The notes: generated from the letters alone by a model not told the origin. A stretch of 64,000 nucleotides of DNA from Spirochaetia bacterium (GCA_963675665.1 OY776510.1:4992001-5056000), one strand, 5' to 3'. Positions 1,755-40,512 are shown, numbered from the stretch's first letter. Made by a program: numbers and translations.

Positions 1755-1903
1755 GGGAACCTCTAATAACCCTAAATTGGGCTTATTTGAGGTTTGAAAC
1801 ACTTTGTGTTTCCGGGAGTTTACTTATTTCCTTATCAGGAAATAAGTAAACATCCACTAAATCTAAGGTCGGCTTCTAAAAACTGCAGTTTTTAGAAGTC
1901 CCC
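1755..1903. repeat. Multi-hairpin palindromic intergenic element (REP/MITE-like)
   Basis: Imperfect terminal IRs GGGAACCTCTAATAAC / GTTTTTAGAAGTCCC enclosing four hairpins (1758-1794, 1796-1812, 1818-1851, 1873-1898); the left end is homologous to the IS target at 38453/39989. Confidence 0.75.
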
Positions 1904-37478: not shown

Positions 37479-38378
37479 TCAGATTATTTCAACCGTTTCT
37501 TTCCCAAGCATGCATGTGAATGATTTTTCCGTCCAGCGCCTGTATATACAGTTATAGCAGCTTTGAGAATCCCCATCGACAAACTCTTCCGGAACATCGG
37601 GTTTAAAATGCCCGCAAGCCCGTTTAACTGCCCTGGCCTCTCCAAAACGCCGCATTTCATTCTTTACCAGCGTTAACCAACAGCTGTTTTCAGGATTCCG
37701 CCGGACAATCAGCACGGGCCGTCCGGCATGCAGAACAGGCTTGGCTTTCCAGCTGATAACAACTTCTTCATTGAAACCAAGCGGCTTCATATCTGTCGTA
37801 CAGACTTCAGCAATATGCGAATTCGTTAAAAGCGCATCGACGGTGAATCTCCCGCCCTGTTCATAATCCGCAATACCGCCTTTCACCTCTCCGTCATAAC
37901 CGTGAAGCCGCAAACCTGCTCCGGCCAGCGCTCCAATAATACCATCGCCGGTGCCGCCGGTTTCTTCAAGAAAGATCCCTGCCTGTCGGGAAAGACTGTA
38001 AGCATGCTGCTTTGTCATAACTTCAGTCTTGGCCCTGTATCCGAATTCAATAACCTTGCTGCGTTCTGTAATTCGATCAATATCGGCAATACAGATACCG
38101 GGATCCGAACCGGCAGCCATCTCCGCAGCCAGATATTCGGTAAGCCCGGTTTTCAACTGCTCAAAGTAACAATCTTCTGCTGTTGTATTAAAACACATTG
38201 AGCTGTTGTGCGAGGTATAACGTACATCCTTGTGCAGCACAAGCTGATGCCGGGATATAATTCCGCAGCGTCCCCACCCCTTTCGTTCAATCAGTTCAGT
38301 CATTTCGGCTGCAATGGAGCCGGTGCCTCTTGATTCCAGATTGTCGGTGTCATCAATGCAGATAAGCAGATTCATCAT
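37479..38378 (-). CDS. TiaS N-terminal-like (DUF1743-like) protein with C-terminal Cys-rich domain
   Basis: ICIDDTD...GTG, RHQL, YTSHNSSMC, GSDPG, GTGDGIIGALAG; tail CGHF.PD.......SCYNCIYRRW....TC. Confidence 0.6.
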   Translation of the reverse strand: MMNLLICIDDTDNLESRGTGSIAAEMTELIERKGWGRCGIISRHQLVLHKDVRYTSHNSSMCFNTTAEDCYFEQLKTGLTEYLAAEMAAGSDPGICIADIDRITERSKVIEFGYRAKTEVMTKQHAYSLSRQAGIFLEETGGTGDGIIGALAGAGLRLHGYDGEVKGGIADYEQGGRFTVDALLTNSHIAEVCTTDMKPLGFNEEVVISWKAKPVLHAGRPVLIVRRNPENSCWLTLVKNEMRRFGEARAVKRACGHFKPDVPEEFVDGDSQSCYNCIYRRWTEKSFTCMLGKETVEII

Positions 38379-38525
38379 TAAAGCTCCTTAAGCCGATAAA
38401 AGATAATTCTGTTTTCGTGATTTCCTTTGGTATCAAAAACCTGGTAAAATCAGGGAACCTCTGATATGATGTGACCCATGTCAAGTTAAAATATCCAGGT
38501 TTTATCTATAAGATCCCCCCCCTGT

Positions 38526-38724
38526 CCAGGACAGGAAGAAAGATAGAACAACGTTTATGCGGCGATAGACCACTCTGATATTCGCGGATTGGTTACCGCA
38601 GGTCAATGGGATCGTCGGGAGCTGCCTCTGTCTAAAACCGAGGATCAATATTATTATTGCCTCATAGAGGTGCCGAGGGTTCTCCTTTATCACTGTTGTT
38701 GTTCTATCCATCCTTCTGTCCTGG
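38526..38724 (-). ncRNA. Putative bridge/seek RNA of the IS110 element
   Basis: 27-nt enclosing stem (38526-38552 with 38698-38724, G-U pairs on the minus strand) containing two internal loops whose strands match the target and donor junction sequences. Confidence 0.75.
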
Positions 38725-38748
38725 TAGCTTATTAACCAACTATCGAAG

Positions 38749-39852
38749 TCATGCGACTTCTGTTCTACCTACCATCATTCCCCAAATAAATCCTGATAAT
38801 TCTCTGGCAACTGCCGTAACAGTTTTCTGAGGGCATACCCCTCTACGAATCATCCTGAAATATTTCTTACTCAACCTTCTGCCGGCTTTATCAGCATAAG
38901 CTATTGTTTCAGCAGATTGTCCTTTCCTTCTCGCTGTCAGTCGTTTCGATGGCGAATACCTTTGGTAATGCCAGCTTGATTCCACTAACAGCCGTCGTAG
39001 CCTGGAGTTGCCGGCCTTCGTAATCCCGCCAAGCTTCCGGCCCTCTCCGCTTGAGTATTCTGACGGCACAAGTCCAAGATACGCCATGAAGGATTCCGCT
39101 TTTTTAAATCTTCTGAAATCTCCTATCTCGCATACAAATGTTAATGCTGTTAATGTCTCTATACCTTTGAAACATCGAAGCCGGGATACCCTTTCTTTAT
39201 ATCTGTCTTCAGCAGCAATCTCTTCTATTTTTTCCTGCAACCGTTCAATCTTTTCCTCTAATTCCACAATCGCAAGATAATATTCTTTTAAAACTTCTTT
39301 ATGCATTACCTGTTCAAACTGCAAGTTTTTCAACCAGGTTCGATGCGCCCCTGTCCAGTACTTTTTCCCAATATCATATTTCTTCCCGTTCCTTAGCAGA
39401 AACTGTAAGAGCCTCTGTTTCTGTTTCCTCAAATCAATTTTCATATCGTTACACATCCTCATGTAATCACGAACTGATTCATCTGTGCGTGTCGGTATAT
39501 TCACCGGTGTTATTTCCTGATTCCTTAATGCTCTGGCTAATTTGACTGCATCCCTCTTGTCTGTCTTTATTCGGTCTCCGGGTTTCCTCGGCAATAATGA
39601 TGGTGCTGCTACGTAACAGATAATTCCCATATCTTCAAGTAATCTATAAAGTGTAAATCCTGTAGGGCCTGCTTCGTAACAACACAGAATATTTTCTCCA
39701 TTCTCTTTAAGTCGCTTGAAGAATCTTTTAATATTTCCGGGTTCGTTCCTGAGCTCTCTTTCAAACTCAGGATTCTGATAATTATCTCTGAATACCGCTA
39801 CTGCGATTGATTCCTTGTGGACATCCATCCCTACATAAATTACACTATTCAT
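38749..39852 (-). CDS. IS110 family DEDD recombinase/transposase
   Basis: YVGMDVHK, CYEAGPTG, IKTDKRDA (DEDD) and GLVPSEYSSG (catalytic Ser); start MNSVIY with GGAGG RBS. Confidence 0.95.
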   Translation of the reverse strand: MNSVIYVGMDVHKESIAVAVFRDNYQNPEFERELRNEPGNIKRFFKRLKENGENILCCYEAGPTGFTLYRLLEDMGIICYVAAPSLLPRKPGDRIKTDKRDAVKLARALRNQEITPVNIPTRTDESVRDYMRMCNDMKIDLRKQKQRLLQFLLRNGKKYDIGKKYWTGAHRTWLKNLQFEQVMHKEVLKEYYLAIVELEEKIERLQEKIEEIAAEDRYKERVSRLRCFKGIETLTALTFVCEIGDFRRFKKAESFMAYLGLVPSEYSSGEGRKLGGITKAGNSRLRRLLVESSWHYQRYSPSKRLTARRKGQSAETIAYADKAGRRLSKKYFRMIRRGVCPQKTVTAVARELSGFIWGMMVGRTEVA

Positions 39853-39990
39853 AGTGGCCTCCGTTCCTTTGTATGTGGCGTGTCTGCGCTTTGCCATTAG
39901 CCATTGTGTAGGCTAATCCACGATTTTGCAAACACGGCGGTCACTTCATATTGTCTAAAAATCCCACTTTCGGGTTATTTGAGGTTCCCT

Positions 39991-40512
39991 TCAGATAATC
40001 CTTACTCTTTCGTTAAAAGATTTTTTCTCACGGCGAGGATGCTCTTCCAAAGGCTTTCCAACAGGGATTAGTATCCGAATTACCCTCTCGGAATCAAGGC
40101 TGCATAATTCGCTGATTGCATCAGCTCTGTTCCCGGTTCTGAGCCAGCCGTCAATCCAGACAGCGGCATAGCCGAGGGCGGTTGCACCAAGCAGTATATT
40201 CTCGGCGGCAGCTGCGCAGTCTTCCACGACGAATTCGTAATCCAGGTTAGATTTATTTGGAACCCTGTCGACATGGCAGGCAATAAATGCAGGCGCGGTT
40301 GACATTGCTTCATTTCCGCCCGGCATTGTGTTTATCTTTTTAACGACATCGGGATCTGCAATTATAAGAAATCCGGTTGTCTGGGCATTTTTACCCGACG
40401 GGGCATCAACACCCGCCTGAACTATTTTACGCAGATCGTCAAGCGGTGGTGCTGCCGCGTTCAACTTCTTTCTGTAACTGAAACGATTGCCTGCAACCTC
40501 AAAAAAATCCAT
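39991..40512 (-). CDS. Nitroreductase family protein
   Basis: R.SYR, APSGKNAQ, DCAAAAENILLGATALGY..VW. Confidence 0.9.
   Translation of the reverse strand: MDFFEVAGNRFSYRKKLNAAAPPLDDLRKIVQAGVDAPSGKNAQTTGFLIIADPDVVKKINTMPGGNEAMSTAPAFIACHVDRVPNKSNLDYEFVVEDCAAAAENILLGATALGYAAVWIDGWLRTGNRADAISELCSLDSERVIRILIPVGKPLEEHPRREKKSFNERVRII

Follow-up and report, generated by a model that had tools for sequence, protein, structure and literature searches.

Does a 199-nt stretch that follows a transposase gene (tnp) on the minus strand of spirochaete DNA encode an RNA that chooses where its own insertion sequence (IS) goes? The stretch (38526-38724) lies within a window of 64,000 nucleotides from a Spirochaetia bacterium (GCA_963675665.1 OY776510.1:4992001-5056000), to which positions given without a contig prefix refer. 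A preliminary description, made from the sequence of this window, had read it as a bridge/seek RNA in which a 27-bp outer stem encloses two guide loops, one fitted to the target and the other to the donor. RNAs of this kind, termed seekRNAs, have been shown experimentally for four IS1111 members (PMC11187229), and for 93% of IS1111 elements a bridge RNA is predicted, located in the right end (PMC11208160). IS1111-type elements carry the RNA downstream of tnp, in long and short forms, with a promoter at the junction, and their guide order is the reverse of that in IS110-type elements (PMC11187229). Our results make it very probable that the minus strand of 38526-38724 is a genuine bridge/seek RNA, belonging to a 1494-bp IS110-family IS of IS1111-type layout.

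Results

The element and its transposase

Eight related places were found in the genome, of which seven are 99-100% identical and one, L008, is 68% identical. Comparison of the flanks placed the IS at 38463-39956 on the minus strand, a length of 1494 bp when the shared TCT (AGA in transposase sense) is counted once. All seven copies have exactly these limits and diverge outside them, and the IS ends assumed in the preliminary description were thus correct. The seven copies differ by a single SNP, at position 39011 in one copy, which points to a recent burst. DNA contigs from four runs of one study break at the IS ends, with the IS at ~6-7x the depth of its flanks, and no empty form of this IS locus was found in them. 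Contigs of runs X1-X3 also contain a joint of 38484 to 38555, in which 70 bases are replaced by 65 other letters; this is probably the divergent relative L008 mapping partly onto the copy in the window.

In transposase sense, the element begins after the left flank with AG, ACAATATGAAGTGACC (left inverted repeat), a 104-nt leader and tnp, and continues through a 24-nt gap, the RNA, TTGACA, GGTCACATCATATC (right inverted repeat) and AG to the right flank. The non-coding part is 286 nt long downstream of tnp (38463-38748) versus 104 nt upstream (39853-39956). The subterminal inverted repeats are 14 nt, begin 0-3 nt from the IS ends and are kept in homologs. Together with the order of the guides described below, the long downstream non-coding region and the subterminal repeats (7-17 bp) give the element the layout of the IS1111 group.

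All seven copies occupy related sites, in a single orientation relative to the site and without target duplication. On the plus strand the sites read GG(A/C/T)ACC-TCT followed by AA(A/T)A..., with TCT at both junctions; the sequence common to both junctions is only TCT here and only CT in L008. The ORF upstream of the insertion is co-directional in four of the seven copies, i.e. the sites show no bias with respect to read-through from host genes.

In the 382-aa ORF, the N-terminal RuvC-like DEDD domain (PF01548) was recognised at residues 22-168 with an E-value of 2.7e-13 and the C-terminal Tnp domain (PF02371) with 3.5e-22, and the NCBIfam model NF033542, 'IS110 family RNA-guided transposase', scored 240.2 bits against a cut-off of 140. 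The motifs GMDVH, CYEAG and KTDKRDA align with GIDTA, CIEAT and KTDTVDA of IS621, the domain-1 alignment being weak when taken alone (i-Evalue 6.1). Further on, GLVPSEYSSG fits the GL-P----SG motif (PMC11187229), its YSSG aligning with YESG of IS621, and the catalytic residues of IS621 are D11, E60, D102, D105 and S241 (PMC11208158). The DEDD domain, the Ser-Gly loop, the family score and site-specific insertion without duplication place the element in the IS110 family.

Within that family, similarity to the IS621 protein is weak (E 2e-10, mainly residues 196-291), and IS4321/IS5075 match residues 198-293 only, IS4321 with 37.5% identity over 26% of the length. The nearest annotated transposases are an IS110-family gene on Leptospira interrogans plasmids (47.2% identity) and ISEc45 (43.7%), each over 98% of the length, and the nearest relatives come from MAGs labelled Spirochaetales/Spirochaetota and from Leptospira plasmids. 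In the source-data matrix of PMC11187229, judged by column order only, ISEc45 and IS1533 stand away from the IS1111 block.

Table 1. Positions of the element, its predicted RNA and its target sites in the window.
Feature	Position	Strand	Basis or remark
Transposase/recombinase gene, 367 aa from MNSV	38749..39852	-	Pfam, NCBIfam NF033542, IS621 motif alignment
Bridge/seek RNA (predicted), two-armed junction closed by a long outer stem	38526..38724	-	Fold z = -5.7; consensus over 23 homologs
Outer stem, 5' strand	38698..38724	-	I1; both-side changes in 18/20 consensus pairs
Outer stem, 3' strand	38526..38552	-	I1; same consensus helix
Target loop, 5' strand GGCACCUCUA	38665..38674	-	Predicted to pair with transposase-sense top strand, core + right target (functional RTG)
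Hairpin capping target loop	38640..38663	-	Columns 70-74/108-111 covary: GC 11, AU 9, CG 3; AU 16, UA 5, CG 2
Target loop, 3' strand GGUUUUAGA	38631..38639	-	Variable part covaries with left-end flank; terminal AGA invariant in 23/23
Donor loop, 5' strand CAUUGACCU	38600..38608	-	Putative RDG, with putative discontiguous pairing to left IS end AG-A-CAAT
Hairpin capping donor loop (UGCGG...CCGCG)	38583..38600	-	Pairs 153-155/186-188 almost invariant
Donor loop, 3' strand AAUAUCAGAG	38573..38582	-	Equals right IS end ATATC + core AG + first left-end base A (putative functional LDG)
Outward-facing TTGACA (candidate -35) near right end	38479..38484	-	In the circle, 17 nt from GACAAT in left end
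Right-end subterminal inverted repeat GGUCACAUCAUAUC	38463..38476	-	Complementary to left-end repeat at 12/14 positions
Left-end subterminal inverted repeat CAATATGAAGTGACC	39939..39953	-	Conserved in homologs
Target half adjoining right IS end, AGGGAACC-TCT	38452..38462	+	Flanks of 7 copies; shared core within TCT 38460-38462
Other target half AAAAATCCC... and REP-like palindrome partner arm (39976-39990)	39957..39990	+	Inverted repeat I6, 15 nt, 87% complementary
Unoccupied REP-like target copy GGGAACCTCTAATAACCC-TAAATT-GGGCTTATTTGAGG	1755..1797	+	Ready IS target within the window

RNA fold and homologs

The minus strand of the stretch folds with -71.7 kcal/mol, compared with -47.6 +/- 4.2 kcal/mol in 200 shuffles, none of which was as good (z = -5.7). 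This minimum-free-energy fold reproduced the arrangement of stems and loops given in the preliminary description, and the two arms of the outer stem are indeed 27 nt long and 85% complementary. All the parts named there also lie where they had been placed, including AUAUCAGA at 38574-38581 and AUUGACCU at 38600-38607 in the second loop, and UUUUAGA in the first, which is the reverse complement of TCTAAAA at 38631-38637.

Homologous RNAs came from L008 in the same genome, from six loci in species-representative genomes (MAGs labelled Spirochaetales, Spirochaetota, Spirochaetaceae, Vulcanimicrobiota, Dehalococcoidales and archaeon) and from a metagenome scan with a pattern of 17 specified bases taken from the RNA core. 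Inspection of 80 metagenome loci yielded at least 20 true members; 60 of the 80 were judged by inspection to be chance matches to the pattern and were rejected. The 23 RNAs with complete sequence were aligned, and their consensus structure has 39 pairs in six helices.

Standard pairs fill 94.8% of the 879 cells in these 23 homologs, whereas shuffled partners give 81.3%, with 0 of 500 shuffles as high, and a slide of the partners by 1-3 columns lowers the figure to 40-52%. Changes on both sides, i.e. compensatory ones, were seen in 22 of the 39 pairs, among them 18 of the 20 in the closing stem and two of the four at the base of the first hairpin; the helices that frame both internal loops hardly vary, and are therefore uninformative either way. 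G-U cells outnumber A-C cells in the alignment (85 vs 25), an excess that points to an RNA read in transposase sense. Conservation is uneven along the molecule, the majority base accounting for a fraction of 0.97-0.98 in the stems, 0.79-0.81 in the donor-loop strands and 0.50-0.56 in the target-loop strands. The preliminary description had proposed folding and covariance across homologous copies as a check, and on both counts it is borne out: the fold holds in the 23 RNAs, and the guides of the first loop covary with the flanks, as set out in the next section. No matching Rfam family was found at E up to 1 over 38000-40400.

Besides many metagenomes and Leptospira plasmids, the sources of this RNA family include MAGs labelled Spirochaetota, Dehalococcoidales and Vulcanimicrobiota and one labelled archaeon. 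Both the RNA and the IS family are present in L013 (the MAG labelled archaeon) and L010 (the Vulcanimicrobiota MAG), with protein identity of up to 72-76% between phyla. The occurrence of L013 and L010 in such distant phyla suggests recent horizontal spread, or else binning errors.

Target loop

The two strands of the first loop were delimited in the same way at each locus, the 5' strand as the bases after a conserved GGAGAAUCCUCG and the 3' strand as those between the first hairpin and the GAGG stem, and both were compared with the DNA outside the IS ends. At the seven sites of the element itself, the 5' strand matches 7-10 of 10 positions and the reverse complement of the 3' strand 6-9 of 9.

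Across homologs, the reverse complement of the 5' strand corresponds to (N)AG plus the right flank. In 19 distinct pairs, drawn from 21 loci with both parts, the mean exact run between 5' strand and right-end flank was 5.84 for the element's own flank vs 2.45 for foreign ones (0 of 100,000 permutations), and between the 3' strand, over the bases before AGA, and the left-end flank it was 2.53 vs 0.72 (n = 17, 0 of 100,000 permutations); the alignment and the guide and flank windows behind these numbers were pattern-defined by the analyst, which could favour the guide reading, and the permutation controls share the same windows. Fits to the right flank were poor in register at L012 (run of 1), L043/L092 (4) and L074 (4), and the left side scored 0 at L057, L062 and L094, where the left end is non-canonical or was probably mislocated by the search pattern.

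The relative in the same genome gives a second line of evidence. L008, whose transposase is 69% identical at the amino acid level, has kept the stems and replaced both loop strands by UAAAAAGCU and UCCGUAGA, and these fit its own site, ...TCCCGT-AG-CTTTTTTAC, except for one base of a homopolymer run on each side. The guide reading of the target loop is therefore upheld by two observations, the independent covariation across some 20 homologous elements and the re-targeted relative. It supports a division of labour in which the 5' strand would guide to the core and right target (top strand) and the 3' strand to the left target and core (bottom strand). That the guides are written on the opposite strand, as the preliminary description had noted, is no more than the order typical of IS1111 elements, where the match to the top strand comes 5' of the match to the bottom strand (PMC11187229). 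Natural re-targeting of this sort also suggests that the RNA may be reprogrammable.

Within the window by itself, the guide 10-mer with up to one mismatch occurs six times in 64 kb vs 2.6 times expected, which is not significant (8 of 100 shuffles reach six); four of the six matches are accounted for by the guide, the empty target and the occupied target with its partner in the palindrome. This window-level test is weak; what argues against chance is the covariation across homologs.

Several loci deserve separate mention. L008 (G000:C1:4456572-4458051) is a single copy with 68% DNA identity, and its transposase ORF is 37 residues short (330 vs 367 aa); it may be decaying. L094, a distant homolog on a metagenome contig, carries guides that are nearly those of the window element (ACACCUCUA and AUUUUAGA); a 2-nt slip from one AG dinucleotide to another is needed before its right flank fits, and the canonical AGACAAT is missing from its left end. 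L012, on a contig of a Dehalococcoidales MAG, has a left guide that agrees with the left flank (CAAGAGA) and a right guide with no fit to the right flank, which could reflect a half-matched insertion or a later rearrangement.

Donor loop

The second loop had been described as carrying a sequence complementary to the donor junction, opposite a strand that matches the donor only in part, and this reading stood for one strand better than for the other. The 3' strand, AAUAUCAGA, is identical to the right IS end joined to the core and the first left-end base; the exact 7-mer ATATCAG is common to this strand and the element's own right end in 14 of the 21 loci that have a right end, and the other seven loci show 1-3 uncompensated differences. 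The 5' strand consists of CAUUG, invariant in 23 of 23, three variable bases and U. For the copy in the window, the match between the reverse complement of this strand, AGGTCAATG, and the left end, AGACAATAT, is limited to AG and CAAT with an offset of 1 nt, i.e. it is discontiguous, and variants of the strand with UCA give a contiguous GACAAT. No compensatory change between either strand of the donor loop and the IS ends was found across the homologs. Since the donor ends barely vary in the family, this absence of covariation is expected and says little, and the conservation of the second loop fits IS ends that are themselves conserved across the family.

These observations leave room for an account in which only the first arm guides, as a 'short seekRNA', the second arm serves as a scaffold for protein binding or processing, and the protein reads the subterminal inverted repeats; the likeness of AUAUCAGA to the right end would then come from shared ancestry or from a protein-recognition motif. 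The missing compensatory change, the seven loci with uncompensated 3'-strand mismatches and the discontiguous match of the 5' strand all agree with it, and so does ISEc11, in which a short seekRNA of 82 nt, holding the target-matching segments, was sufficient for transposition and supported it better than the long form (PMC11187229). A base-pairing role of the second arm is thus not established for the IS1111 type. However, the two loops have the same geometry, with a 3' strand of the form N5-AG-A and a 5' strand ending in CU just before the hairpin, the 7-nt identity with the right end that is kept in two thirds of these loci includes the core, and the near-constancy of the donor ends removes much of the force from the lack of covariation. 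Moreover, the donor loop of IS621 does pair with the donor, and there too the RDG-RD pairing is discontiguous (PMC11208160). We regard guidance by the first arm only as a serious possibility that is nevertheless the less probable one, and pairing of the second arm with the donor seems likely from the match between loop and IS ends.

Transcription and putative junction promoter

No sigma-70-like promoter was found on the minus strand of the integrated copy, nor was any RNA sequencing run found that contains the stretch. Of 23 distinct right ends, 22 carry TTGAC(A/G), which in 16 of them stands exactly 18 nt from the IS end. With the ends joined, TTGACA would be separated by a 17-nt spacer from a candidate -10 in the left end, GACAAT, which matches at 4 of 6 positions. 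The circle junction that would carry this promoter was not found in the DNA contigs of the four runs from one study.

A structure that begins 24 nt past the stop codon, on a strand where no internal promoter was found, might also be a 3'-UTR element of the transposase mRNA, acting as stabiliser, terminator or translational regulator and having no role in the choice of site, and its long closing stem would protect a 3' end. Yet the stem is not followed by a U-tract, and a regulatory stem leaves unexplained why hypervariable loop strands track the DNA of both flanks; a stabilising role would in any case be compatible with a guide role and not an alternative to it. As a replacement for the bridge/seek RNA reading, we consider the 3'-UTR account very improbable.

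On the bridge/seek RNA reading, the RNA, which lies on the same strand as tnp, would presumably be cut from a transcript shared with the transposase gene and be bound by the protein, folding into the long closing stem and two arms, each made of a stem, an internal loop and a hairpin. Pairing by the target arm would fix both site and orientation. In the second arm, the 3' strand (AUAUC-AG-A) would pair with the right IS end and the 5' strand (CAUUG..CU) would probably pair discontiguously with the left IS end, so that this arm would hold the joined ends of an excised circle, with a predicted junction of ...CATATC-AG-ACAATATG.... A tetramer of the DEDD/Ser recombinase would then exchange strands at the AG/CT core without target duplication. 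While the element is a circle, right-end TTGACA and left-end GACAAT may form a promoter for both transposase and RNA.

Target site

The target of the window copy can be written GGCACCTCT-AAAACC. Most copies sit in the left arm of a REP-like palindrome; here its arms lie at 38452-38466 and 39976-39990 and read GGAACCTCTAAAA...TTTTAGAGGTTCC, and the genome contains further palindromes of this sort. At 1755-1772 the same window has an empty site, GGGAACCTCT|AATAACCC, which fits insertion at the shared core. The 15-mer implied by the guides has no match in the genome at up to one mismatch, 9 at up to two and 128 at up to three. With a loose pattern, 50 matches were found vs ~42 expected from composition, so the target is not an abundant repeat, and REP-like palindromes that bear it number only about ten in the genome.

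The notion that the RNA structure is itself a passenger remnant or mimic of the targeted REP-like palindrome, alike by common descent and not by guiding, would suit the window target, which is one arm of such a palindrome, and the resemblance of the two loop strands to the starts of both arms, but L008, L011, L020, L057, L062, L081 and others have unrelated, non-palindromic targets whose own flanks are matched by their loop strands, and the loops change within stems that stay invariant, which leaves this notion with next to no credibility.

A second IS110-family element, ~1381 bp long, is present in 15 identical copies outside the window (G000:C1:243141-244160 and 14 further places) and has a long non-coding region upstream of tnp, the IS110-group layout. 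Each copy stands directly after a Shine-Dalgarno-like (T-rich)AGGAG, only a few bases ahead of a host gene's ATG; the right end of the element closes with TTGACTTTTTATAGGAG, which leaves the gene beyond it with a ribosome-binding site. Of the target, the left half alone is conserved, and it is equal to the right end of the element. The least typical site of the element in the window is that of copy L007 (G000:C1:2621202-2622705), ATAAACCTCT|AAAGTACT, which the guides match at 7/10 and 6/9 positions. This copy lies outside any palindrome and 100 bp from a copy of the second IS110-family element, and its left flank includes a short stretch that resembles the left end of that element.

Discussion

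Systems of this kind have been known since 2024; the present copy adds a clean, though ordinary, case to them and leaves knowledge of the mechanism unchanged. Its interest lies in being a natural, well documented RNA-guided recombinase whose transposase clade is far removed from the systems that have been tested: identity to the closest named elements does not exceed 47%, and the match to IS621 and IS4321 extends over only ~100 residues. The rules of its guides can be read from seven near-identical copies, an empty site and a re-targeted sibling, all in one genome. For this family, which is missing from Rfam, a covariance model could be started from the 23 aligned homologs, and this might help the annotation of elements that are now labelled only 'IS110 family transposase'.

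It is conceivable, if somewhat doubtful, that the RNA family forms a distinct and unusually regular structural class of 3'-encoded bridge RNA. In such a class, a closed three-way junction may bear the target and donor loops as geometric copies of each other, and the invariant A that follows the core in the target loop, which complements the first IS base and not the target, may be a built-in post-exchange ('handshake') pair. If so, the element would offer a compact ortholog with programming rules that are easily read. The transposase clade (ISEc45/Leptospira-like, 367 aa) may also be one that the two 2024 classifications treat differently.

Among known systems, ISPpu9/ISPpu10 (PMC12288879) resemble the element in having seven copies within palindromic extragenic repeats and in recombining at an AG common to IS and target. 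Unlike it, ISPpu9 belongs to the IS110 group, with a bridge RNA upstream that has its own strong promoter, and has no junction promoter (PMC12288879). The bridge RNA of IS621 (PMC11208160, PMC11208158) likewise has two internal loops, for target and donor, and IS621 has the core dinucleotide (CT/AG) in all four pairings and a discontiguous RDG-RD, as is predicted for the element, with which it shares the DEDD and Ser-Gly motifs. It differs in carrying the RNA upstream of the gene, in the reversed order of guide strands within each loop and in having an inverted repeat of only 2-3 bp.

Closer in protein sequence, the downstream RNA of the Leptospira interrogans plasmid element is recognisable as a homolog, ...CAGCUCCCGAUG...CCGCGAAUAUCAGUCUGAUCAAUCGUCG..., and the right end of this element reads ...CCATATCAG. 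In ISEc45 (ISfinder name, from RefSeq annotation) the first arm is more divergent and, by eye, similarly arranged. Both differ from the element in the window by a protein identity of <50% and by other guides and targets, and a literature search limited to paper supplements found no bridge RNA described specifically for either.

In organisation, the nearest counterparts are ISEc11, ISPa11 and ISKpn4 with their seekRNAs (PMC11187229). As in the spirochaete element, their RNA lies in the long non-coding part that follows tnp, its top-strand-complementary segment stands 5' of the bottom-strand-complementary one and overlaps it at the insertion point, and subterminal inverted repeats are accompanied by a promoter from the joined ends, which is predicted here. 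ISPa11 also targets a REP, and natural re-targeting among relatives is seen in ISEc11 and ISXne4 (PMC11187229) as it is in L001 and L008. Among the differences, the transposase has 367 aa here vs 330-350 aa for the IS1111 family and bears only a distant resemblance to that of the IS1111-type IS4321, and the RNA, whose extent is taken here from sequence, has 199 nt and a closing stem of 20-27 bp vs long forms reported at 145-170 nt (PMC11187229).
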